DNA from: a virus
Taxonomy: Duplodnaviria > Heunggongvirae > Uroviricota > Caudoviricetes
Strand: one strand, 5' to 3'
DNA: 64,000 nt
Virus record (IMG/VR): IMGVR_UViG_3300013902_000267
Shown here piece after piece: positions 33-63,897 of this stretch (its first letter is position 1; every line of letters starts with the position of its first letter). A program made the translations under genes and the position numbers. Below the pieces are notes generated by a model, which did no database searches, was not told the origin of the DNA, and saw only the letters and a list, made by a program, of their open reading frames with translations.

Positions 33-103
33 TGGGATATAATGTAATGGTAACATGGAATACTCTGAATGTTCTCTTACTGGTTCGAATCCGGTTATCC
101 CAA
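33..103 (+). tRNA. tRNA-Gln (anticodon CUG)
   Basis: Hand-folded cloverleaf: acceptor TGGGATA/TATCCCA, D stem ATGT/ACAT, anticodon stem GAATA/TGTTC with loop CTCTGAA (U33, CUG, A37), T arm ACTGG-TTCGAAT-CCGGT. Confidence 0.8.
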
Positions 104-222
104 CATATTCGTAATTTTTATTTTTTATTTTTTTTATTTTTAAAGGATTTATACATAAAGAGAAAAGGTTAATAAGATTTATTTCTTATTAACCTTTATT
201 ATTTTATTTCTTAAAATAAATA

Positions 223-846
223 TTAATCTTCATCATCCCAATAATCATAATATTCATTTGGATCATAATTTAATTCTTTATCTTCCTTAAAATTATCAAT
301 CACCTTAGAATTTTCAACAAATTCTTTTACTTTTTCTATAATATCTGCATCGTTAATCATTATTTCTTGAGTGCCATCTGTTAACATTAAACCATCAATA
401 TTTATTTTATCGATTTTACATTCAGTTTCATCTGGATCATCAGGTTGATCATAATCATGTGAACGCATACCTGGCGTATAATCAACCCAACAATCAATGT
501 CTGCATTAAATGCTAAACTTACGCCATAATCTTCCATTGAACGTGTTAATATTGTTGCTGTTTCATTCTTTGGATCAACATCTGGTATAATATTACACAT
601 TAAACAATCGTCATCTTGATCATATTGCTCTATATATCCATTATCATTAAGAAGATCCATAATTAATGAATTAATTAATTCTTGTGGAAGTGATTCCATA
701 TCAGAAAGATCAATATCTCCATTTTCATCATAATACTTTGGATCAATATTAGATGATGTTATTATACCTTCATTAAGTGATTTCTTAAGTGCTGAAGCAA
801 TACCATTTACTAATGATTCATATAATGCTTTATTTTGTTTCTTCAT
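223..846 (-). CDS. acidic hypothetical protein with shared N-terminal leader motif (LYES..KK.LNE)
   Basis: Track ORF of 207 aa, very D/E-rich. Its N-terminal ~28 aa resemble those of the sigma factor (59148-60137) and the lysozyme (62683-63897). Confidence 0.6.
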   Translation of the reverse strand: MKKQNKALYESLVNGIASALKKSLNEGIITSSNIDPKYYDENGDIDLSDMESLPQELINSLIMDLLNDNGYIEQYDQDDDCLMCNIIPDVDPKNETATILTRSMEDYGVSLAFNADIDCWVDYTPGMRSHDYDQPDDPDETECKIDKINIDGLMLTDGTQEIMINDADIIEKVKEFVENSKVIDNFKEDKELNYDPNEYYDYWDDED

Positions 847-942
847 AATTTCTATTAAATGCTAAATTATTTTTTATATTTATCATTTTTAAAACTATTT
901 AAAATAATTAATCTATAATAATTAAAATAAAAGGTTTGTTTT

Positions 943-10269: not shown

Positions 10270-10863
10270 ATGCCAACAATGATGCCATTAATGGATAAAG
10301 ATACCGTAAGATATATAACATAGAATATTACACCAGAAGAAACTAAATATGTAGCTGATATAAAATCTACTATTGATGATACAAAGTGTGAACCAGAGAA
10401 ATGTGATGATGTTATATATCTTACTAAGATTATCGCTTTTTATACTAAATTTACAAATCTTGCAAATACAACACCTAATAATCAATATAAGATGCATATT
10501 CAAGATTTTATGTGGAGATTACAGCAATATAAGGAAGATATATTTGAAGTTGTTCAATCTATCATAGGAGTTTTAAATGGTTCCGATATTACAAAGATTG
10601 AATTACCTATAAGTGATAATCCATTAGAGATTATAAATGAATTAAAACAATGTGTACAAAATTGGTTTACACTTCATACAGATGATATTGAATATGAAGG
10701 CGCTAGATCATTAACTAGTTCATTCCTTTCTGTAATTCATAAGTTTGTTTACCTTTTTAGATTAGATAAATGCTCGACTGCTGATTATGGTCAGGATTAG
10801 AAATTACCAAATCCTGATGCAGGATTATGTGGAGTAAACGGAGCATATGCAGTAAATTTTTAA
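10270..10863 (+). CDS. late-module hypothetical protein (2 in-frame TAG)
   Basis: ATG upstream is in frame with track ORF 10492-10800. Only TAG interrupts the frame and it ends at TAA. Confidence 0.55.
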
Positions 10864-10874
10864 TATGATATAAT

Positions 10875-11828
10875 ATGAATCCTATAAATCAACCATCATC
10901 TAGAAATTACAATATCAATGGTAGTACAAGAAATAATGGGTTCTTATATAAAATTATGCCTTTATCATTTAATTTACAATAGAGAGGAAATGATTTTAAA
11001 GTTAAAAAATACAATAAGTGTAAATTTAATATCGGCGATAATGTAAGAGGATTGTGTTTGGAAGATAAGAAAGAACATTCAGGACGAATTACTAATATCT
11101 TATACAGTACAAATACAGAAGTTCCTTATTTAGTTTATATCATTGATAATAAGACAAGATAGAAATTATCATTAAACTTTAGTTCGCTAGAATTTAATAA
11201 TTCTAAAATTGATGAGTCATATGGGTTTGATGTTGCCATTAAACTATATGAAACATTAAATAAAGATAAATATAATAAATTAAAACTTTAGAATAGAATG
11301 GTAAATTCAATAAAAGTTTTACTTGAAGAATATTTTAATAATACAGAACAAATGGATATGTTGTTAAATGATTATTAGAAACAACAGAAAAAAGCAAGTA
11401 AAGCATATGATTCACGTCAAGAGTTTTTAAAATCAATATTAGGTAAAGTAACATATAACAAATATCAAAATAAAGGTATGTTTGCTCCTATTCCTTTATC
11501 TGCATTGCATTTAACATTCGAAGATTTTTATTATTTGTTTCCAGAGAATAATATTAAGATGAGACCAATGGATAATGAAGCAGGTGTAGAGAAAGTAAAG
11601 AAACTTATTGCACGTATTAATAAGGAATATCCTAATAACGGTATTAGATTGTTAGATAATGGTGTTTCTTATACATTAAGTTCAAATCTTGTATTTAAGA
11701 GATTAGATAATATAATTGATTTTTTATAGATAATTCAGAAAAATGTTTTGAGGATTTCATCTGATAAAACAAATCCAACAGTTAATTGGAAGGCGATGAT
11801 AAAGAAATTCAGAAATTATCTACGATAA
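10875..11828 (+). CDS. late-module hypothetical protein (about 6 in-frame TAG)
   Basis: ATG 10875 is in frame with track ORF 11478-11729 (603 nt apart). All intervening stops are TAG and the frame ends at TAA 11826-11828. Confidence 0.65.
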
Positions 11829-11861
11829 TCAAATAAGTAAAATAAATTAATTAAAATAATA

Positions 11862-12365
11862 ATGATGATAACTACAAACATAAGTAACATTCCAGACGCA
11901 TGGGATGGTTATTTTGAACAATAGGTTAATAAGTTCACGCCTTCTGTTGAAGTTCCTAAGCCTTGGAGACATCCGGTTGGACCTGAACCTATGATGAAAC
12001 CTTGCAAGCATCATAAGACATAGTTTATTATAAAACATAAACCTGCTACATTACCAAATGGACCAGAACATGGATGTAACGTATGTGATCCATATCATCC
12101 AAATTTGTATGATCATATGAATATGCCTTGTTTTAATCAACATAAACCATATGGTATCGCTACTAATAGATTAATGAGTCCATTTGAAGATGATGATAGA
12201 CCTGATTGGCATGAATTCCATGCTAAGAATCGTAAACCTATGATGTTTGAAGAAGTTATAGATGAAAATGGTTGTTCACATGGTCCTCATGGAACAATTA
12301 ATGTTAGACCAGTTGAACCTGCTGATGATGAAGCAGATGAGATTGAAGATGAAGTAACAGTTTAA
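11862..12365 (+). CDS. His/Cys-containing protein with acidic tail (2 in-frame TAG)
   Basis: ATG 11862 is in frame with track ORF 12105-12365; CKHHK, GCNVCDPYHP and GCSHGPHG motifs. Confidence 0.65.
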
Positions 12366-12398
12366 AATGAAAATTAATTAATGATAGAAATATAAATT

Positions 12399-13166
12399 AT
12401 GCAAACATCAAGTAAAGTTTCATACGATAATTGGAGTGATTGGAATTTAGGAAATTAGATAATGAATATAAGACCTGTTGGTACATATTGCTTCTGTGAA
12501 CATCATCATTGTCACCATCATCATCCTTGTGATTGTGTAGATTGTGAATTCTCAGAATCATATATTAAACCAGAATCTTGTTGTCATCATCATCCGCATC
12601 CACCAGTACCATGTCCACCACATCATTGTGATTGTCATGATCCACATTTATTTCCAATTGATCAAGATAATGATGGATTTGTAGAAAGTGATATGATTCA
12701 TAAACATCCAGAACCATATATTCCAGAACCATTACCAGGAGAAATTGGAGATAAAGAAGATGATACAACAAATAGAATGGAAGTAGGTGACGAAGTTGAT
12801 GATATTGATGATTCAACAAATTATTATGGTTCAAATTTAGTTGTAAGTATTCCTAAAGAAATTCAACCAGTAGAAACATCAGATGAAATTGATTCTATTT
12901 TAGATGAAGATACACAAGATGATATGGTAACTACTGATGAAGATGGTTATCATACATTAAGTGATGAAGTTCCAGCAGAAGAAGATAATTGGGAAACATC
13001 AAAAATGATTGATACTAATACATCTAAAATTATTGAAGAAACACCAGTTCCTGAATAGGAATTAAAGGAAGTTGAAACTATTCCATCTGTAGAATCAGTA
13101 GAAGAGAAACCCACACGTGGACGTAGAAGAGTTAATCGTGGAGGAAGACGTAAAAAAGAAGAATAA
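12399..13166 (+). CDS. His/Cys-rich putative metal-binding protein (2 in-frame TAG)
   Basis: ATG 12399 is in frame with track ORF 12462-13058. CFCEHHHCHHHHPCDCVDC...CCHHHPHPPVPCPPHHCDCHDPH; reads through TAG 13056 to TAA 13164-13166. Confidence 0.65.
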
Positions 13167-13188
13167 TTTTTATTCTATATATAATAGA

Positions 13189-13226
13189 AAAGAGACTTAG
13201 AACAAAAATACTAAGTCTCTTTTTAT
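13189..13226. terminator. bidirectional terminator between convergent genes
   Basis: AAAGAGACTTAG / CTAAGTCTCTTT hairpin flanked by A and T runs. Confidence 0.6.
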
Positions 13227-13262
13227 TTTTTATAAACATTCACATTTAATTTTACTATAAAA

Positions 13263-13889
13263 TTAAAGCATACATTCATCCCACCAGTCAGCGCGGAAAG
13301 TCATATCACAAGACATCAAATCTGTACTGTCATAATTAAGTGTAGGACCAGGTACACCTGTTGTAGGGAAAATGTAATAGAATACCCATTGCCAATATGG
13401 ATTACCAGCACGATCTTGCATAGTAATAGTCATTGATGGCGCCACGTAATCTTTCTTAAGGCCTTCACGACCTGTAAGAGGATCATAAATAAGGTCAACC
13501 CATTCACGAAGGAACTTATATGTGTAGTTCTCAGGTGAACCGTTATCATATGAAAGGTTAAGGTTAAAGTGTAATGTCAAGTCGACATTAGTTCTATCTG
13601 GTTTTGCACCAGCGAATGAACGTTGTGCAAATTTATACTTTTGCTCTGTTGCGTTAGCACCAAATGAAGTAGAAATCTGACCAACACTTTGTACACCTTC
13701 AAGAATAATATTCAAACGTTCATCATCTGTTGTATCAACCATACCTTGAGGACAACTTAATTGAACAGTAAACAAGTTCAAATATATAGGTTCCCATAAT
13801 GAGGTAGATACACGGCTATTTCTAAAATGTGATAATCCTAACAAACCTGGAGATTTCTTAGGTAAAGTAGGTCCATTTGTTACTGCCAT
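13263..13889 (-). CDS. tail tube protein (T4 gp19-like)
   Basis: IYLNLFTVQL near the N-terminus and a MTFRADWWDE C-terminus recall T4 gp19 PNLFQVEI ... TLALDYWE. TAG-free and visibly higher GC than its neighbours. Confidence 0.6.
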   Translation of the reverse strand: MAVTNGPTLPKKSPGLLGLSHFRNSRVSTSLWEPIYLNLFTVQLSCPQGMVDTTDDERLNIILEGVQSVGQISTSFGANATEQKYKFAQRSFAGAKPDRTNVDLTLHFNLNLSYDNGSPENYTYKFLREWVDLIYDPLTGREGLKKDYVAPSMTITMQDRAGNPYWQWVFYYIFPTTGVPGPTLNYDSTDLMSCDMTFRADWWDECML

Positions 13890-14042
13890 ATTATTATTAA
13901 AGTATATTTTATTTTATTTATCTGTGAAAAATAGGTAGATTAAATGTAGACAAAAATATTTTTTTATAGTATAAATTAAGAATTTAAAAAAAATAGAGAT
14001 AAATAATTAAGTTCAAAAAATAAATTTTAAATAAAGAAGAAA

Positions 14043-14216
14043 ATGAAGAAGATTTTATTTGTACTTGCTGCTGTTGTAACAATGAGTTTCGCTTCTTGTG
14101 GTAACAAGACTACTACATGTGGAACAGCAAATGATTCAACTGCAACAGATACTACAGTTGTTGATTCTACAGCTACAGATTCAACTGCAGCTGATTCTAC
14201 AGTTTGTCCTATGTAA
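14043..14216 (+). CDS. small lipoprotein with DSTA repeats (57 aa)
   Basis: MKKILFVLAAVVTMSFASC signal peptide plus lipobox, then a repeated (T/A)DSTA(T/A) motif. Below the track cutoff. Confidence 0.55.
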   Translation: MKKILFVLAAVVTMSFASCGNKTTTCGTANDSTATDTTVVDSTATDSTAADSTVCPM

Positions 14217-14389
14217 TTCATAAGACAAACTTTATTTTAGAGAAGATTATTGTGTAATTAAAATATAACCTAATATAAGGTTTATATTAAACTAATTTTA
14301 GAGATATACTAAATATATTCATTTATATTTGGTATATCTTTTTTTATTTAATAAATATTTAAAATTTATTTAACTGAATTATATAATAT

Positions 14390-15286
14390 ATGGCAACATG
14401 GAATCAAGCAGTTCAATAGATGGGTAAGTTTTATCAATAGAATATACATACATATCAAGGAGGTAAATCAGGACATGCGACAGGTGCTAGACGTTCTTAT
14501 TCATGTCCTTTAGTTGGACACAGTGTAGGAGATGATTGTTCAGGATTTACTTCTGCGTGTTTATAGTTATTTGGAGCATTTCCAGGCTCATATATTGTTT
14601 CATCTAGTGGTTTTGCATCAACATCTGGTGCAACAGCCGCATATTTAAGAAAAGCTGGATTTTCACCGTTAAGATATATTAGTTACTCATCTTTATAGCC
14701 ATATGATATTGTTGCAAGAAATGGACATGTTGAAGTATTTTGTGGTATGAAGGGAAGTTCACCAATGTCATACGCATGGGGAAATATTCATGATGGCATA
14801 AATGGACATGTTGGTATGCCATGTTGGTTTTCTAAACAGTCTTATTCTATTGTATGGAGAAATTCTGGTGTAAGTATAGATACACCATTAGATTTTTCTT
14901 CAGTGTCTGGCGGTTCATTACAACAATAGATGAATTCTGGATATGGTACAGGTGGAACATTAAATGGGTAGACAGGTTCATAGTTTAATTATACATCAAA
15001 TACATATCCTGTTCATGATGAATATGAAACTATTTCATCTGGTAATGGTTCAAAATCTGTATTTGAAATTGTAGGTGAAAATACATTACGTATGGCATAT
15101 ACAAATTCATCATATATACAACAATTAGATTCATCTAATTATTAGTTAAAAAATACTCGTATATATTCAACTAATGATGCATCTATAATATTAGATGAAT
15201 TATCAATACCATTAGATCCATTTGATACGAGTGTTAATACATTAGATTCAAGTGTTATTGATAATTCAGTTAAAACAAATAATTAA
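14390..15286 (+). CDS. NlpC/P60-type cell-wall peptidase (about 8 in-frame TAG)
   Basis: ATG 14390 is in frame with track ORF 14747-14929. DCSGFTSACL (Cys nucleophile) and NGHVEVF (His); ends TAA 15284-15286. Confidence 0.7.
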
Positions 15287-15292
15287 TAATAT

Positions 15293-16333
15293 ATGGCTGG
15301 CAAGAAATTACTTAATGGTGTTTATATAACAAAGAAAATAATGGAAGCTTTTAATCTTAAAGATTATCAGGCTGCTGGATTTGCTGGTTGTTTTATGGAA
15401 GAATCTGGTTGTGATCCCGGTGCATATAATGCCGCTGAAAAATCTGGAAGATTTAAAGGTTCATCAGCGAACGGTGCAGGTTATGGTGCAGGTCTTGCAT
15501 AGTGGTCTAATGCATGGAAACGGTAGATATAGAGATAGTTTAATAATTCAAGGCCTATAGAAAATTGGACATTAGATTAGCAAATAGCTATTGTTACTAA
15601 AGGCTGTTCATAGTCTTTTGTAAATTTATTAAGAAAATGTACATCAGTAGGTTAGTCTACAGATATTGTTTTAAGAGGATATGAAAATGGTTCTGCAGGT
15701 AAAGGTACTAAATTACGTTCATAGCAATCAATGAAAGCATATACGTGGTGTAAGACATCATATATGGCAGATGGTAGTAGACGTACGTTTAGTGATGGAT
15801 ATATTGGTGCATTAACATGTAGAACATCATGGGCTAATGCAGTTTTAAGTAAAATGGGATCAGTTAATCTTGCAGATTTATCCGGATTAGGAACAGAAGT
15901 AGGTGGAGGATTAGGTGATGATGGCTCTTTTGGTTCTACTGGTGGAGGAGGAACTGGAGATTCAAACGCATATCCTGTTCATGATGAATATGAAACATTT
16001 ACTGGACAAGGTGGAAATATATTTGCAAATGCAAAAGATAATGCATTTCAATTAGCTGCTGATGCATCAAAATCTAAATTTTCATCTAAAGATTCTGAAG
16101 CATCTAAGCATACACGTATATATTCTACAAATGATTCTTGTATTGTTTTAGATGAATTAAGTATACCATATGATCCAAATGATCCAACTATTGAATATGC
16201 AAATCAAAATGTAAAAGCGGAAGATGTTAAGAAAGATACATCTACTAATGCAAAAGATAATACTAAAGACACATCTACAAATAAAAGTACAAATAAATCT
16301 AATACTACAAAAAAGACAACTAAATCTAAATAA
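15293..16333 (+). CDS. lysozyme-like (phage tail lysozyme-type) peptidoglycan hydrolase (about 8 in-frame TAG)
   Basis: Track ORFs 15293-15502 and 15731-16333 are co-framed (438 nt apart) and joined only by TAGs. AAGFAGCFMEESGCDPGAYN ... GYGAGLA-TAG-WS motif. Confidence 0.7.
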
Positions 16334-16335
16334 TT

Positions 16336-19300
16336 ATGATTACAATAAATGGTATTAAATATTTAAAAAAAGGAGAGACATCAAATGATAAAACAATAAC
16401 GCATTATTATTATACAGATTCATTAAAGAAAACTTATAACATAATATATAATGGCAAAAATGCTAAATTATATACAGATACTAAAGTATACAAGGATTCT
16501 GATACAAATTAGATTATAAAGAAAGATTTCTTTAATTATACTATTGATTACGGAACAGGAAAATATGGAGGTGTTTGTTATTCAAAATCAGATGAAGATA
16601 AGATATTAGGTATGGTCGATTCTGATAGTAATATAGATGGAAGTTCTAATGGAGATTCTACAACTGATGGTGATAATAGTTCAAACTCTGGAAATAATTC
16701 TGATGATTCTGATAATAATGACGGTAATAGTTCAAATAATGGTAATGGAACAGGTGATGATACAAATGATTCTGATAGTAATGGATCTGGTAATAAAGAT
16801 ACTAATAATAAAGGTATATTTGAGGATTCAATGGGTAATAAAGATAAAGATAATCCTCGAAGTTCATTACCATTAGGAGCAGATATTAAAGATCCTGATG
16901 TTACAGGTTTTAGCATTGATGAAGTAACAGCGCCACATCCACGAGAAAACAATTGGTATAATAAAGGTTCTGTTTGTCCAATAATACGTATAAATGATCA
17001 TTATTTTTCTGATACTGAAATATAGCATTTTTCTATGGAAACTGGATATTATAAGAATTTTTATGATTATCAAGTATACCAAGCACCGTTAACAGGTGTT
17101 TTACCAACTATGAGGCTTATTGTTACAACAACAGATCCAGGTTTATTAAAGAAAGATTTTATAAAGCAAGGTGATAGATGTAATGTATTTTTCTAGAGTA
17201 ATCATTCTATGATTAAATCTATGAGATGTGATTTCAGAATTACTAATGTTGTAACAGATTAGTTAGATTAGACGTAGTATTAGAAATATCAAACATAGAT
17301 TATAACAGGTGAACTTTATGTCCCGGATTTAAGAAATGAAGAAACTCGTTATAATTTTAATGGTTCATCAAGAGATGCTATGATGGATTTGGCAAAGAGA
17401 TTAAGATTAAGTTTTTTCTTTTGTGATCCTGATGATACTAATGATAAAATGGTTTGGTGTAATTGTAAAACACCTGAAATGTTCATTCATGATTTAACAA
17501 CGCATGCATGGAAAAATTCTATATCATTCTTTGAATCTTGGATTGATCCACGTTATGGATTATCTTTTATGAATATTAATAGATTATTAGGTGAAGATGG
17601 ATTTGATGAATCAATAGATATGACATTCTGGACTAATACATTTATTAATAATAGATCAGTTGATGGAAAATCTGCAAATGAAACAGATACAGAATAGAAA
17701 AATAGTACACATATTCAAACAAAATGTTTTACTAATATTATTAATGATAATGAATCTGCTACAGTATATCATGTTAATAGTTGGAGATTGGTTAATAATG
17801 CATAGGAAATACAAGATTTTGTTGGATTGAATTGTAAAATGCAATATTCATCTGTTAATCCTGGATTATTATCAGATGAGAATAATAATCCAAATTATAG
17901 TGTAGAATTTTCATTATGTTTAAATAGAACTAAATTTGATCCAACTAAAAAGGATAATGATTTTTATGTATTATTAGGACCTGGTAGAAATATGACATAT
18001 GCGAGTGGCGATGCCGCCATGGGAACATCTGAAACACAATCTTCAAATAAAAATGAACCTGAACAAGTTACAAATCAAATGTCTGATGGTGATGCAGATG
18101 CAATGGATAGTACAGGAAATAATATGATGTCTTCTGGTAATACACATCAATTTTATGAAGTTGCTTATGAACATAATATGAGAAATTTACTATAGTTATA
18201 GAAATAGTATTTACTTGTAGAATTAAATGGTGCAAACTTAAGTATTGTTCGCGGTGAAAAAATGCCTATTGTATTAATGGATTTAAATAAAGCAGAACAA
18301 GCTATTAGAACTAGTCAAGCACGTACAAAAATAGAAGAATGTATGTATGAAGCTGAATCCGGTTGGTATATAATTGATGGTATTGAATGGGTTTTTGATC
18401 CTGATAATGATTAGGGACAAGGTACAAACTGGCGAACTAATGTGAAATTAGTTAGAAGAGAATGGCCAATACCATCAAAAATAAAAGATGCAAATGGTAA
18501 TACTGTTTCAAAAAATGTCGCAAATAGTATTGTTTTGGTAGATATTGGAAACGGACAATAGATAAGAATGGCTTATTATGATGCAGTAAAGAAATATAGT
18601 TAGGAAATAAAAAATGGTGATGTCAAAATATTAGGTGGAACAACATCTGAAGACGCAGTTGTAATTGGTCAGAAAAAACAAAACATATCTTCAACTAATG
18701 ATGAATAGAATTCAGATGATCTAGAAGAAAGTGGTAAATTATATACTGCAAATGGTGTAGAGACTGTAAGTGCAGTTAATTTTAATCTTGATTTAATGGA
18801 TCAATATGTAAAAGATTCTGATTATGTTGGTTAGTCTACAATACCTTTAACTGGTTTGAAAGATTTTATGAAAAATATTTATAAAACAATATTATCTGAA
18901 TCCGATAATAAATGTAAATTGGTATCTGGAAGACGGTGGGCAGTAGATGAATATGGTAATAAGGTAAATGGAAATGCGTTTGTAAAGAAATATGATTATT
19001 ATAAATGTATGAATGCTATAGGTGAAGTAATGTATTTTAAAAAAAATAATTCAAGTCATTTATATGGTGAAGCTATTGATATTATTAATAATGGTATAGA
19101 TTTTACTGAACTTATGACTAATGTAATAATGAAATCACCTGCGATATTAAAATTATTTTATGATAATGGTGTTTCTGCTTATATAGAGCAAGCAAAGGAT
19201 GATACAGGCGCAACTACTAAACATTACCATATTGGAACTGATACAATAAAACAACGAGAATTTTGGGAATCTGTTAAAGCTATATTAGGTTCTGATATGA

Positions 19301-19425
19301 TTCCAGGAACTATGATAACATTTATGAACTATATGACAAAAAATACATAGAGAACAACAGAATTCTCTGTAAGTAGTGAAATAGACGAAAACACATTACA
19401 AAAAAATAGTAATAATGATAAATGA
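16336..19425 (+). CDS. large tail/baseplate-associated protein with C-terminal M15-type peptidase (about 19 in-frame TAG)
   Basis: Track ORFs 16612-17025, 17380-17697, 17827-18195 and 18856-19350 all share the frame of ATG 16336. N/D/S/G-rich low-complexity region; SSHLYGEAIDI...HYHIGTD zinc-peptidase motif; ends TGA 19423-19425. Confidence 0.7.
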
Positions 19426-32779: not shown

Positions 32780-34816
32780 TTACTTTTCAATCATCTTAAT
32801 AGATCTCTTAACGAATTTCGCTAAATCTTCACCTTGAAGCAAACCATACTGCAACAATGCAATATCAATCAACTCGTGAATATGATTATCTGTATGTGCA
32901 TGATTATTGATGATTTCTTTCTTCTTCTCTAGGACTTTATCAAGTTCTTCCTTAATAGGTTTCTTTGCATCATCATTTTCTGCGTTTTCAAGGCGTGAAT
33001 TAATGTCTTTAACTTGTTCATTAATTTCATTAATTGCAGGTCCAATTTCTTTTTCTGCAATCTTAATAATTTTCTTAACAACCTTTGAATCTGCATTAAT
33101 TACAAATTTAATATTTGCATTATCCTCAAGATACATACCAGCATTATTAAGCATAGACATTTCTTTCATACGACGGAAGAACTCATCTGCGATAATAGTA
33201 ATAGGCAAAGCATCCTTGCCATCTTGCTTAACCTGGAATTGATGTGTAATCTTAGGAAGATTCAAATCAATACAATCAAACAAAGAAATAAGCATACTAA
33301 TAATATTATCAGAAATTGGTTTAACTTTCTTTGTATCATCTTCTTTCTGAATAAGTTCCTCTGGTACTGCAGAGTCAATTCTCTTAAATGTTACATTCTT
33401 ATCCTGAAGTTTCATCTCGAATGTATGAACTTCAAATGCACCATATTGACTATTAAACAACAAGATGTTATATCCATATTCCTTCAATGCTTCAATATAT
33501 GTATATTGTGTAGCAGTATCATATGTATAAAGATATACAATCTTTCCATTCTTATCTTTCTGTGTCTCTAATACCTTATCATAATATTCATCAAAAGTAT
33601 ACATCTTATTATCTGTATCAACAAGAAGAATAATATCCTTTGCCTTGTCAAAAATATTAGGCTCCGTTACAACACCAAGGTTAATAAATGTTTTAATCGT
33701 CTCCCATTTCTTTTCATATGTTTCACGATCTTTCTTCATAAGAGTTCTCAATGAACTCATTACCTTATTTGTAATATGTGAACTAATCTTCTTAACATTC
33801 GCATCATTCTGAAGAACTGATCTTGAAACATTCAAAGGAATATCAGGGGAATCAATCACACCATGAAGAAGACTCAAATAATCTGGCAATACACCATCAA
33901 CATCATCTGTAACGAATACGCGGTTACAATACAAATTCAAATGTCTACGTTCAAAAATAGGATGTTTTTGATCGAATGCTGGGAAATAAAGAATACCCTT
34001 AAATGTAAATGGTGTATCAATATTAATATGAATCCAGAAAAGAGGGTCAGGTCTACCAGGAAATGTATCCTTATAAAACTTAATATAATCTTCATCTTTA
34101 AGTTCTGATGCAGACTTCAACCACAATGGTTCATCTCTTGTAATCAAATTTTCTGTAGGCTCTGGATATGTAACTTCACCTGTAGACGCATCTGTTGTAG
34201 GTGCAGGAATATCTTTAAGATAAATCTTTACAGGAAGATATTCAGCATATTTCTTAAGAAGTTCAGAAAGTTTTGAATTATTTACATATTCCTTATACTC
34301 ATCAGAAATATGCATAATTACATCTGTACCAACAGTTTCTTTATCATCATCTACAAGAGTAAATTCTGTTGTTCCTTCACAAGTCCAACGACATGCTGTT
34401 GAACCTTCCTTATAACTCTTTGTGACAATCTCAACCTTTGAACTCACCATGAAACTTGAATAGAATCCAAGTCCAAAATGTCCAATAATCTGAGTATCTT
34501 TATATTTCTCAAGAAAATCATTAGCACCCGAAAATGCAATCTGATTAATATACTTCTCTACTTCATCAGCAGTCATACCGATACCCATATCAGATACAGT
34601 AATAGTATTATCTTCATGATTAATAGATACTGTAACTTTCAAATCATCGGGATTTGCATTATACTCATTTGCGCTAATAACCTTAACAAGTTTCTCTGTT
34701 GCATCAACTGCATTACTAACAATCTCACGGATAAAAATATCCTGATCGTTGTACATGAACTTTTTTATCAATGGAAAAATATCCTAACTAGTAACTCCAA
34801 TATTACCTTTTTGCAT
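32780..34816 (-). CDS. htpG: HSP90-family chaperone HtpG (1 in-frame TAG at 34784-34786)
   Basis: EIVSNAVDA, DMGIGMT and IGHFGLGFYS GHKL motifs. Start extended to MQKGNIGVTS-TAG-DIFPLIKKF, in frame with track ORF 32780-34771. Confidence 0.85.
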
Positions 34817-59042: not shown

Positions 59043-59147
59043 TATTTTATTTTAAATAAAAAAGAGATATAACAAAATAATCTGTTATACCTCTTATAAA
59101 ATATATCTTAAAATAATAAAAAATTACATAATATATTGTAAAAGCAT

Positions 59148-60137
59148 CTATGTTTCCTCATCAGCTTTTAATTTTGGATATGCAGCTCTAAGTATCTGTA
59201 ATACACGTGTTTCTGTCATTCCATGTTCTTCTGCAACTTGCCATGTATTCTTTTCACCACGTCCATTAATACCATAGCAATCACATACAATTTCACCATC
59301 TCTTTCACCAAGAACTCTCTTTACATTATCTTCAAGTTCTCTTTCAAGATCAGCGTTATTAAGATTACTATCAGGGTCTTTAAATGTCCTATTAGCTGTT
59401 ACATCACCTAATGTTGTTTTAGAATCATCATCATCCCCGTATGATTTATCCAAACTATTTGCACGTGTATTTGCTTCCATTGTTTGTGCAAATGTTTCAT
59501 ATTTCAAATCTGGATGTTTCTTTACGAGAACATTATAAATATCATCAATATCAGGTTCATAACCATTCTTATTATATAATTGATCCTTGATACGAGCGGC
59601 TTCACGAGCAATACTACCCATATTACGGGGAACTGCCATATGTCCACCTACCTCATCAACAGCAGTCATAATTTCTCTACGAATATACCAAATAGCATAA
59701 GAAACAAAACGTACATCTTTACCTGGCAAACTTGGATCATATGTATCTGCTGCTTGCATAAGTCCTATATTTCCATATTGAATCATATCTTCCTTTGGTA
59801 TATTAATATTTTTATACTTATTGACAACAGAAATAACAAATGGAAGATTTGCGGACACCAACTTATTCTTTGCCTTTTCAATTTCTCTCTTATTATCAGA
59901 ATGTTGAATAATATCAGCAAGTTTCACTTCATCTGCATGTGATAATTGTTTTTTCTTATTAATAGCATGTAAATATGCAATAGTAGACTTTGCTGTATTT
60001 TCATCCTGTGTAATAGCAAAATCATCATGCAAATCCATATGCATTCCATTATTAGCTTCATTGAGTTTCTTTCTAATAGTCTTAGAAACATTTCTCATGA
60101 TACTTTCATACAATGTCTTCTTTTCATTTAACTTCAT
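59148..60137 (-). CDS. sigma-70 family RNA polymerase sigma factor
   Basis: Region 2 LPFVISVVNKYKN...YGNIGLMQAADTYDP...FVSYAIWYIRREI and region 4 WQVAEEHGMTETRVLQILRAAYPKL. The N-terminus carries the shared leader motif. Confidence 0.8.
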   Translation of the reverse strand: MKLNEKKTLYESIMRNVSKTIRKKLNEANNGMHMDLHDDFAITQDENTAKSTIAYLHAINKKKQLSHADEVKLADIIQHSDNKREIEKAKNKLVSANLPFVISVVNKYKNINIPKEDMIQYGNIGLMQAADTYDPSLPGKDVRFVSYAIWYIRREIMTAVDEVGGHMAVPRNMGSIAREAARIKDQLYNKNGYEPDIDDIYNVLVKKHPDLKYETFAQTMEANTRANSLDKSYGDDDDSKTTLGDVTANRTFKDPDSNLNNADLERELEDNVKRVLGERDGEIVCDCYGINGRGEKNTWQVAEEHGMTETRVLQILRAAYPKLKADEET

Positions 60138-60189
60138 ATCTTGATAAAAATTATTTCAATATTTTAAATATTTATCTTAAAATAAAAAT

Positions 60190-62091: not shown

Positions 62092-62187
62092 TGGATATAG
62101 ATGGACTCGAACCACCATGTATCTGCCCTAGAATTATGATACAAACTAACATCATATTAGTCGCGTTTACCATTTCGCCATATATCC
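62092..62187 (-). tRNA. type-II (long variable arm) tRNA, Ser(UGA)-like, with a non-canonical anticodon loop
   Basis: Acceptor GGATATA/TATATCC, Ser-like D arm TGGCGAAATGGTAAACGC, anticodon stem ACTAA/TTAGT with loop TATGATG (A33, U37), a 26-nt variable hairpin TGTATC..GATACA, and T arm GGTGG-TTCGAGT-CCATC. Confidence 0.55.
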
Positions 62188-62193
62188 ATATAG

Positions 62194-62266
62194 CAGGCCT
62201 GATGAGATTCGAACTCACAACAACATGATTAAAATTCGTGTGCTCTACCAATTGAGCTACAGGCCC
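62194..62266 (-). tRNA. tRNA-Lys (anticodon UUU)
   Basis: GGGCCTG acceptor, GCTC-AATTGGTA-GAGC D arm, anticodon loop ATTTTAA, and T arm GTGAG-TTCGAAT-CTCAT. Confidence 0.85.
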
Positions 62267-62472: not shown

Positions 62473-62682
62473 CAATCTACGTTAACTGTAATACTAAAGC
62501 TCTTGACTCAATGCTAACGCTAAAATCTAGGATTCTGTTTATGCTAAATGTAATCAAGCTAATGCTTTAGTCAATTTACATATGTTATATATGATATTAT
62601 ATTCAAAGTCTATTATTCATATCAAAAATATTTTTAAGAAATAAATATCATAAATGAATCGATAACATTTATTATATAATAT

Positions 62683-63897
62683 ATGAATAAGAATTATAAC
62701 AAACTATATGAAGAAATGATGTCAGATATTTCAGTTATCGTTAAAAAGAAAATAAATGAAGCATATGACAATCAGCTTCTCGAAGAATATGGTGCAAAGG
62801 ATATGTTTAATGATATTATGAAAGAAGCATCAAAAGAAGGTAAAATCTTTTATAAGCATCTTAAATAGTTTATAATTTATATCATCAAAAAATTACAAGA
62901 GACAGATCAATATAAAAAAGCTGAAAAACTTATGAATGCGTATGTTCAGAAAGTACAGAAATATATTGATGAACATAAGAAGATTACTCCGAGACGTATG
63001 TTGAAAATTACTGTTGCTGTATTGACAATGTATGGAGGTGTTTCAATGATACAAGATTGTAAATAGATGATTAAATCTTTATAGGGTAATGTTGAAACTT
63101 ATGAATAGAAAGTAGAAAATGTACCGGATGAAAAGCAACAAGAAGTAATAGTAGAAGAACCTGAAGATTTTGTTGTTGAAGTTAAAGATGAAGCAAAAGA
63201 AAAATTAAGTGTCAAGAAAGTATCTACTGAAGATATTAATAATACACCTGAAAAGAAATTTAAGGAAGACAAGAATTTCAATTTTAAGTCAAGCAACGAG
63301 GCTCGCGAATTTATTAAACATCATGAGTTATGCTTACTTTACCCTTATTACGCAAAACCCGAAGAGGAAGCAAAAGGAATGGTAACTATTGGTTATGGTC
63401 ATGTTGTATTGGAATCAGATGGTGAATTATACAAGAAAGTATAGCAATTAAAAAAGAAAGGCTTAATTAAACAATCATTTGTTACAAAAAATGGTAAAAC
63501 TATTTTAAACCCTAATCATTGTAAAACCATTATAACAAAGACTGACGCAGATAAATTATTTTAGAAAGATATTAAGATTGCTGAATAGCGTGCATATAGA
63601 ACTATACAAAATATGCCTACTGATGATGATAATGTTAAATATTATATGTTATATAATCAAAAAATAAGAGATGGTTTAACATCATTATGTTATAATGCTG
63701 GATAGCTTAAACATGAAAAATATACATTCATAACAAAAGGTCTTGCAAAATCTAGATATGATTATCAAGCATAGAAAATAAATGCAGGTGATTATAATGT
63801 ATCCTTTAAATATTTCAAGAATATTAAAGATAATCCTAACAGAAGAAATGAGGAATATAAGTTATTCTTTATGAACGCAAATAAGTCTATGTCATAA
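62683..63897 (+). CDS. membrane-anchored GH24 (T4-type) lysozyme with long N-terminal extension (9 in-frame TAG)
   Basis: Track ORF 62683-62868 continues in frame through TAGs to TAA 63895-63897. TM helix ITVAVLTMYGGVSMI; HHELCLLYPYY...GMVTIGYGHVV...TKTDADKLF lysozyme motifs. Confidence 0.75.

Follow-up and report, generated by a model that had tools for sequence, protein, structure and literature searches.

A conserved N-terminal leader shared by a sigma factor, a lysozyme and many acidic proteins of the megaphage Lak-B7 as a probable capsid-targeting propeptide

The 64,000-nucleotide stretch of viral DNA analyzed here (IMG/VR record IMGVR_UViG_3300013902_000267, Caudoviricetes; referred to as the window) is, over its bases 40000-64000, 100% identical to Prevotella phage Lak-B7 (MK250026.1, 550,702 bp, from baboon faeces), and encodes a sigma-70 family factor, a lysozyme and an acidic protein that begin with the same leader peptide. 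This leader, which has the pattern M-x4-KK-x-LYESIMKSVSKTVKKKLNE and a length of 26-27 residues, heads 16-17 unrelated Lak-B7 proteins and is probably a capsid-targeting propeptide, that is, a long and conserved variant of the capsid-targeting sequence (CTS) of phage T4, cut after its closing Asn-Glu (NE) and carried by cargo proteins that would be injected into the next host. The support for this reading is circumstantial. The original prediction had proposed a detachable sorting signal, with capsid targeting among its examples, and several indirect tests concur with it, namely the N-terminal position of the tag, the sharp boundary of its conservation at NE, the presence of a T4-type head module, the LNE tripeptide in the capsid protein and the late-promoter-like motif ahead of the tagged genes.

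All three N-termini were recovered in a six-frame scan for LYE (Table 1), and the remainders of the three proteins are as unrelated as had been proposed, comprising a Sigma70_r2 domain, a lysozyme of family PF00959 and an acidic ORFan without family. What did not stand is the count of three, which is too low by a wide margin. A hidden Markov model (HMM) of the leader was built from the three copies. When the whole genome (550,702 bp) was translated in six frames, with Gln for TAG, 17 of the 7,972 resulting segments matched this model at E <= 3e-6 after two iterations, 16 of them directly behind a start codon; the whole-proteome scan proposed with the original prediction thus shows that the sharing of the leader is not a matter of chance. 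As with the T4-type CTS, one N-terminal peptide is therefore found on unrelated proteins of a single phage. The tagged proteins of Lak-B7 include, besides the sigma factor and the lysozyme, two paralogues (about 500 aa each), one protein of 504 aa and a large number with lengths of 90-220 aa; family matches are absent from nearly all of them. A further weak leader match heads a 413-aa tape-measure-like protein. One leader gene (genome 316885-316607, minus strand), which lies in tandem with the leader gene at 317598, has ATA at the position of the ATG (INKIQKKALYENIM... against MNKIQKK... in its orthologs) and represents either a non-canonical start or a recently inactivated copy.

The leader is not confined to Lak-B7. 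When 1.84 billion cluster representatives (50% identity clusters) were searched exhaustively by HMMER with its profile, matches were obtained in 1,244 clusters at E <= 1e-3, including 24 at E <= 1e-10. In 194 of the 219 leader-bearing sequences that were collected the leader is N-terminal, and another 20 have a Met just upstream of it, so that fused open reading frame (ORF) calls are likely in these cases. Counted from the Leu of the L-Y pair as position 0, the columns of this set are strongly conserved at Met -8 (86%), L0 (100%), Y1 (100%), E2 (92%), S3 (85%), I4 (90%), M5 (92%), V/I8 (100%), K13 (96%), L/I16 (99%), N17 (91%) and E18 (99%), while from position 19 onward there is only a preference for small or polar residues (S 30%, D 15%, A 14%, N 13%); conservation stops after (L/I)-N-E. 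A scan of IMG/VR with a degenerate pattern yielded 21 leader stretches, all but one on contigs of 158-554 kb, and a scan of the same database for the KDVAKTVK subtype gave no match. At least 120 leader loci were found in metagenomes, from human gut, apparent rumen and other samples; among the 120 loci listed there are 184 leaders, of which 161 end in [LI]NE, and 46 loci hold two to five leader genes, as in L092, where five lie within 3.4 kb. Two divergent leader proteins are encoded on contigs shorter than 1 kb. Four metagenome representatives (P0080, P0086, P0101 and P0109) contain two leader copies that each end in NE, or a duplicated leader-plus-domain, and could be polyproteins that are cut into two cargos, or fused ORF calls. 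No paper describing the leader was found, either among the Lak papers or in the rest of the literature searched.

It is the peptide, and not the DNA, that is under selection, since the leader copies use both TCN and AGY codons for Ser and both TTR and CTN codons for Leu, their Ile, Val and Lys codons vary freely, and the DNA from the promoter motif to the ATG is not conserved among them. It is accordingly very improbable that the leaders resemble one another only because of events in the DNA, for instance the spread of a mobile cassette of promoter and leader or recent duplications, with a peptide that has no function of its own. Such an origin would be in keeping with the promoter motif and the leader travelling together, with the frequent tandem arrangement of the tagged genes and with the existence of proteins with two leader copies, but it is largely refuted by the codon analysis, in which many synonymous differences, including two-step switches between the Ser codon families, separate the copies, and it does not account for amino-acid conservation that extends over 1,244 clusters and ends at one exact residue.

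The consensus of the leader helix, L-Y-E-S-I-M-K-S-V-S-K-T-V-K-K-x, has a net charge of about +5 and places hydrophobic residues at i, i+4 spacing. Its composition, rich in K, S, T and E and with no continuous hydrophobic stretch, is not that of a Sec, Tat or lipoprotein signal peptide or of a signal-arrest-release (SAR) anchor. The charge and the spacing could nonetheless be those of a cationic helix that directs proteins to a membrane or some other site outside the capsid interior, for example a membrane-bound assembly site or a phage compartment, and membrane-like segments are present in the lysozyme and in the 413-aa tape-measure-like protein. This explanation is improbable in our judgment: the hydrophobic moment of the helix is not significantly above that of shuffled versions (a claim that the helix is amphipathic was dropped for this reason), a soluble sigma factor has no reason to be located at a membrane, and the LNE boundary, together with its match to the capsid site, would go unexplained.

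That match is found within a T4-type head module. Lak-B7 encodes a 581-aa prohead protease (genome 497185-498930, protease domain at about residues 1-230; Peptidase_S77, gp21; PF03420, E 9.5e-15), a capsid protein (Gp23; PF07068, E 3.1e-32) and a portal (Portal_T4, gp20; PF07230, E 1.6e-59), and the protease retains the catalytic His and Ser motifs GELDHPE and FVSSRA in comparison with T4 gp21 (AF158101). The capsid protein contains K-L-N-E at residues 61-64, and across 16 Lak-like capsid proteins (50-100% identity) the sequence (L/V)-N-E followed by (D/A/S)-A is conserved while the flanks and the linker lengths vary. Because both carry (L/I/V)-N-E, the leader ends in the same tripeptide as the probable maturation site of the capsid protein, an agreement at the level of motif identity. 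The T4 protease cuts behind the Glu of hydrophobic-x-Glu, as the T4 sequences show (gp23 ...FLTE65/AEIGG, IPII and IPIII MKTYQEFIAE/A, IPI ...TITE/A, the slash marking the cut); the propeptide of gp23, 65 residues long and ending in L-T-E65, and the function of the CTS have been described (PMC9026906). The ORF of the Lak-B7 protease has the highest density of [LIV]NE among 523 crude gene calls and carries LNE at residues 19-21, as T4 gp21 carries a similar motif, LIE-9, near its N-terminus (PMC9026906). Further [LIV]NE sites are found in two hyper-acidic proteins, one of 735 aa (genome 81045-83252, minus strand; four sites, an N-terminus reading MKRKLNE/S and D/E/S-rich tracts) and one of 1,687 aa (genome 60478-65541, minus strand; eight sites and long D/E/S-rich tracts). 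Both proteins, and likewise the C-terminal extension of the protease, which is acidic, could plausibly belong to the core or scaffold on which the basic leader would dock. A stretch reading KAIYES in the capsid propeptide was considered as leader-like and was dropped, since it is not conserved in other Lak-like capsid proteins.

The cleavage-like boundary also bears on the weaker possibility, likewise named in the original prediction, that the leader is a docking or regulatory tag on late proteins that are not packaged, acting either as a degron or adaptor element for a phage ClpXP or as a means of routing to chaperones (HtpG, GroEL). Proteins of the kind required appear in the published annotation table of Lak-A1, which lists a 680-aa htpG, ClpX (749 aa) and ClpP (230 aa), the leader is a basic N-terminal element that lies exposed before a flexible linker, and routing of proteins to GroEL has been reported for the T4 gp23 N-terminus, to judge by the title of reference 29 in PMC10052503. 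We consider this explanation unlikely, given that a degron leaves unexplained both the fixed distance at which (L/I)-N-E occurs and its match to the boundary of the capsid propeptide. The known N-motifs of ClpX, moreover, are short and unstructured and are not 20-residue helices. The ClpXP explanation draws on the Lak-A1 table, and the 735-aa ORF that had been considered as a Lak-B7 ClpX was rejected, being hyper-acidic and without family match. In the window, a 678-aa ORF (32780-34816, minus strand) has an N-terminus that resembles HtpG (Hsp90), and phage-encoded chaperones and proteases (HtpG, ClpX, ClpP) could bear on the rival explanations.

Evidence on the timing of expression comes from the recoding of the genome and from a promoter-like motif. 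Lak phages translate TAG instead of stopping at it (code 15; Devoto et al., 2019, PMC6784885), and in the window in-frame TAG is confined to some genes, for example those of a block at 10270-19425 and the lysozyme gene with its nine TAG codons. When the regions about 40 to 21 nt ahead of the ATG are compared between TAG-rich and TAG-free Lak-B7 genes, the 7-mer that sets the two classes apart best is ATAAATA, which is similar to the T4 late promoter TATAAATA. This motif precedes about 50% of the TAG-rich genes, about 10% of the TAG-free genes and 2.6% of random windows, is found upstream of the capsid, protease and portal genes, and stands 26-42 nt before the ATG of 15 of the 17 leader genes, including the sigma gene and all seven that are TAG-free (8/8 versus 20/201, Fisher p 4e-8); among the metagenome leader genes listed it is present in 124 of 145. 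The seven tagged genes without TAG are an objection to a capsid signal, in that the lack of TAG is typical of the non-recoded (early) class; because all seven carry ATAAATA, they too are probably late. The sense TAG inside the sigma gene likewise points to the late class. A late sigma of the gp55 type is encoded in Lak-B7 at genome 404231-404617, with an E of 7.8e-5 to T4 gp55 in phmmer and a match to phrog_234 ('late sigma transcription factor') at E 4e-11; this factor and ATAAATA together look like a T4-style late promoter system in a Bacteroidota megaphage. Indirectly, then, the promoter motif, the gp55-type sigma and the sense TAG of the sigma gene indicate late expression of the tagged genes.

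Table 1. Coordinates of the tagged genes, their leaders and upstream motifs, and of tRNA genes, in the window (genome position = window position + 139,511; overlap verified).
Feature	Position	Strand	Remarks
Sigma-70 family gene with leader	59124..60137	-	337 aa with TAG codon 330 probably as sense; code-11 ORF stops at 59148
Sigma leader MKLNEKKTLYESIMRNVSKTIRKKLNE, 27 aa	60057..60137	-	HMM E 9e-16; putative cut after E27
ATAAATA late-promoter-like motif	60169..60175	-	38 nt upstream of sigma ATG
Acidic ORFan with leader	223..846	-	207 aa; mature part pI 4.05
Leader of acidic protein MKKQNKALYESLVNGIASALKKSLNE, 26 aa	769..846	-	HMM E 3.2e-16
ATAAATA motif	877..883	-	37 nt upstream of ATG of acidic protein
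Lysozyme gene, late	62683..63897	+	404 aa, nine in-frame TAG as sense
Lysozyme leader MNKNYNKLYEEMMSDISVIVKKKINE, 26 aa	62683..62760	+	HMM E 2.7e-16
ATAAATA motif	62641..62647	+	42 nt upstream of lysozyme ATG
451-aa late protein, C-terminal leader-like helix	63923..64000 (genome 203434-204786)	+	runs off the window
tRNA-Lys(UUU)	62193-62266		adjoins type II tRNA
tRNA-Gln(CUG)	33-104		

The sigma factor contains regions 2, 3 and 4 of the sigma-70 family, with Pfam matches that are clear for Sigma70_r2 (E 1.2e-11), just below the Pfam cut-off of 25.3 bits for r3 (24.7 bits, E 2.6e-5) and weak for r4 and r1.2 (E ~0.008). Its ORF had been taken to end at 59148; it probably runs through TAG codon 330 to a TAA at 59124, because its counterpart in over 100 orthologs is Arg or Lys, and the tail beyond it, MLLQYIM, is conserved. 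The homolog search returned close Lak orthologs only, with no sigma factor from outside Lak for comparison of the leader, and in these orthologs L-Y and LNE are kept while the remaining leader residues diverge, with two leader subtypes represented. The AlphaFold2 (AF2) model of the protein is of low confidence (predicted local distance difference test, pLDDT, 57.8) and was used for secondary structure only, of which it predicts a helix at residues 3-28 followed by a low-confidence coil at 29-45.

A more confident model was obtained for the acidic protein, which is without Pfam or PHROG family match. With an alignment of 15 sequences, AF2 (mean pLDDT 84.5) predicts a helix of modest confidence at residues 3-25, a disordered segment at 22-31 that contains LNE, and a confident alpha/beta domain at 35-195, so that the leader forms a helix of its own in the model, with a disordered linker between it and the globular domain. 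Neither PDB (best E 0.19) nor BFVD (best E 0.028) contains a match to the predicted fold, and the idea that this cargo is a known DNA mimic or adopts a known fold is unsupported despite the confident model. Orthologs of the acidic protein exchange one leader subtype for another (MKKQNKALYESLVNGIASALKKSLNE versus MNKKALYEAIMKDISKIVKKKINE) with LY...(L/I)NE kept, and whenever the subtype is exchanged within orthologous cargo, as is also the case for the sigma factor, the L-Y pair, the i/i+4 hydrophobic pattern and (L/I)NE are always retained.

The lysozyme ORF is present only when its in-frame TAG codons are read as sense. The protein consists of the leader, a helical region, a weakly hydrophobic segment (residues 106-124), an acidic linker and a GH24 domain (residues 225-367; Phage_lysozyme PF00959, E 3.2e-6). 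The segment at 106-124, which had been described as transmembrane (TM), has a mean Kyte-Doolittle value of 1.32, and that description was too strong. In Lak-A1 the role of endolysin could fall to a separately annotated amidase.

Directly downstream of the lysozyme gene lies the gene of the 451-aa protein, which carries the one strong leader match in Lak-B7 that is not N-terminal. Its C-terminus reads ...EKKKKALYESIMSKVAKTIKRKLQLI before the stop codon and is without NE; the same C-terminal variant of the helix is found in several other Lak contigs, with at least seven cases that end in LQL in the metagenome loci listed. The protein has no Pfam or PHROG match, and its gene is followed by a terminator-like hairpin. 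The C-terminal copy points to docking as the basic role of the helix, which could also be used without release.

An uncleavable C-terminal variant would also fit a structural role, and it has to be weighed whether the tagged proteins are themselves prohead core or scaffold, with a helix that serves assembly or oligomerization only and with cargo that is broken down or leaves the head on maturation. The links to the head module, the LNE motif and late expression also fit this alternative, and the acidic tagged proteins resemble the T4 core proteins gp67 and gp68. In their mature parts the tagged proteins have a median pI of 4.4, with 74% below 5, as compared with 5.9 and 23% for Lak-B7 proteins of similar size (Mann-Whitney p 2e-22). 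The cargo is, however, hyperdiverse (1,244 clusters, nearly all of them ORFans) and often arranged in variable tandem arrays, unlike conserved scaffolds, and its mature parts contain few internal LNE sites. Pfam families were matched in 4 of 96 representatives and in 5 of 28 long metagenome cargos, and comprise Peptidase_U32, DUF2201_N and M56-like metallopeptidase, DUF285 repeats, WG repeats and hexapeptide repeats; neither such peptidase-like and repeat-domain proteins nor a sigma-70 factor or a lysozyme have an obvious role in a scaffold. On balance we think it rather unlikely that the tagged proteins are scaffold. This alternative, like the degron or chaperone tag, the membrane signal and the DNA-level cassette, accounts for less of what was observed than capsid targeting does.

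If the leader is a capsid-targeting propeptide, the tagged proteins would be made late, and their basic N-terminal helix would dock them on the core of the assembling prohead, where the partners may be the hyper-acidic core or scaffold proteins and the acidic C-terminus of the protease. The gp23-type capsid shell would then close round the core, and the gp21-type S77 protease would cut after (L/I)-N-E, the motif that also ends the capsid propeptide. The freed cargo, which includes the lysozyme with its membrane-like segment, the complete sigma-70 factor and many fast-evolving small acidic proteins, would stay in the head and be ejected with the DNA into the next host. There, the injected sigma factor would let the host core RNA polymerase read phage promoters at once, and the acidic ORFans would be candidate anti-defence or host-takeover effectors. 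We infer the docking, the cleavage, the packaging and the injection, as well as the functions of the cargo. A complete sigma-70 factor that is made only late would be of little evident use to the cell that produces it; its presence would make sense if it travelled on to the next host, in the way that Alt does in T4 and the packaged RNA polymerases do in N4 and phiKZ-like phages.

The closest parallel is with the CTS of T4, which is found on IPI, IPII, IPIII and Alt and is removed by gp21. In both phages a short N-terminal propeptide is borne by unrelated, fast-evolving and non-essential proteins, and the T4 internal proteins have been described as a diverse set that shares only the conserved CTS (PMC3012670, PMC9026906). 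The likeness extends to the hydrophobic-x-Glu end of the peptide (IAE/A, ITE/A and, in gp23, LTE/A), to the homologous gp21, gp23 and gp20 of Lak, to a cargo aimed at host transcription (Alt in T4, the sigma factor in Lak) and to a Tyr-x-x-hydrophobic core, in which the Lak leader has Y in 100% and I in 90% of the sequences; residues 4 and 7 of the T4 CTS matter for targeting (PMC9026906). The hyperdiversity, ORFan status and tandem arrays of the Lak cargo are likewise paralleled by the internal proteins of T-even phages. In contrast to T4, the Lak leader has a fixed distance from Met to Leu and Asn almost always at P2, there are about 17 cargo genes per genome compared with about four, and an uncleavable C-terminal version exists.

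Several of these differences weigh against the capsid-targeting interpretation. At 26-27 residues, the leader is longer and far more conserved than the T4 CTS, which is mutation-tolerant and has 10-19 residues. It also has no clear sequence homology to MKTYQEFIAE, with only Y-x-x-hydrophobic shared with that sequence and with MKTFKEF... Because the leader thus falls outside the T4 CTS in both length and sequence similarity, we file it as a long variant, and not as a homolog, of that peptide. To the same side of the balance belong the acidic character of the cargo, as opposed to the basic T4 internal proteins, the unremarkable hydrophobic moment of the helix, and the conserved late protein with an NE-less C-terminal helix, which a pure cleavable-propeptide model does not predict. 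The specificity assigned to the Lak protease is moreover deduced from motif sharing, and no Lak virion proteome, N-terminal mapping or protease assay was found in the literature searched for these uncultivated phages.

Other delivery systems offer more distant parallels. In phiKZ-like giant myophages, a gp21-related protease (phiKZ gp175, SPN3US gp245) cuts after Glu, and many internal and ejected proteins are processed (PMC5694885, PMC10052503). In gp47, an ejection protein of SPN3US, the propeptide precedes a TM segment (PMC5694885), a layout paralleled by the leader, membrane-like segment and enzyme of the Lak lysozyme. The phiKZ-like propeptides differ, however, in being long (often more than 100 aa) and unshared and in having the motif (S/A/G)-x-E, whereas in Lak P3 is L/I in 99% of the sequences and one leader of 27 aa is shared. 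These phages package a virion RNA polymerase for early transcription (PMC5694885, PMC10052503), such that a whole RNA polymerase is injected, in contrast to Lak, in which only a sigma factor is tagged.

The anti-restriction Dar proteins of phage P1 are packaged in the head and delivered to the host together with the DNA, and a paper on the structure and assembly of P1 reportedly uses the term 'capsid targeting sequence'. P1 differs from Lak in its head lineage, in the lack of a common cleavable leader and in an ordered dependence on helper proteins. In encapsulins and microcompartments, a short N- or C-terminal helix suffices for loading unrelated cargo into the protein shell, and encapsulin shells have the HK97 fold; these peptides differ from the Lak leader in being uncleaved, in belonging to non-viral shells without delivery and in having no sequence similarity to it.

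The remainder of the window, which has a G+C content of about 27%, shows several further features. The TAG-rich block of late genes at 10270-19425 (plus strand), with ORFs of up to 1,029 aa with 19 TAG codons, is presumably a structural module (tail or baseplate); within its region (12001-16000) the G+C content is slightly higher, at 0.32 versus 0.27. The coding strand and the GC skew change sides near 20 kb. A type II tRNA with a long variable arm (62092-62187, minus strand; Rfam 45.3 bits) was missed by ARAGORN; its anticodon loop, UAUGAUG, is possibly that of a Ser-UGA tRNA with an unusual A33 and is not that of a CUA suppressor. A suppressor tRNA beside the lysozyme gene was considered and rejected, the neighbors there being only this tRNA and tRNA-Lys.

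Lak phages are among the largest phages known and are common in human and animal guts, yet they are uncultured, and most of their genes lack an assigned function. It is possible, although we advance this tentatively, that a single 27-residue leader loads a large 'ejectome' with fast turnover, which includes a sigma-70 factor that would redirect the host core RNA polymerase at once, without a virion RNA polymerase, and that the leader could then be used to predict, from sequence only, which proteins huge uncultivated phages inject, with more than 1,200 cargo families. We know of no description of a virion-delivered sigma factor as a strategy of host takeover; if true, it would stand between the injected Alt of T4 and the injected RNA polymerases of N4 and phiKZ. 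The leader may also be usable to load proteins into the capsids of Bacteroidota phages. If it does mark injected proteins, it would allow the injected proteome of these phages to be listed without other data than sequence, with some 17 members in each genome and over 1,200 families across metagenomes; the injected proteome is where anti-defence and host-takeover factors are to be expected.

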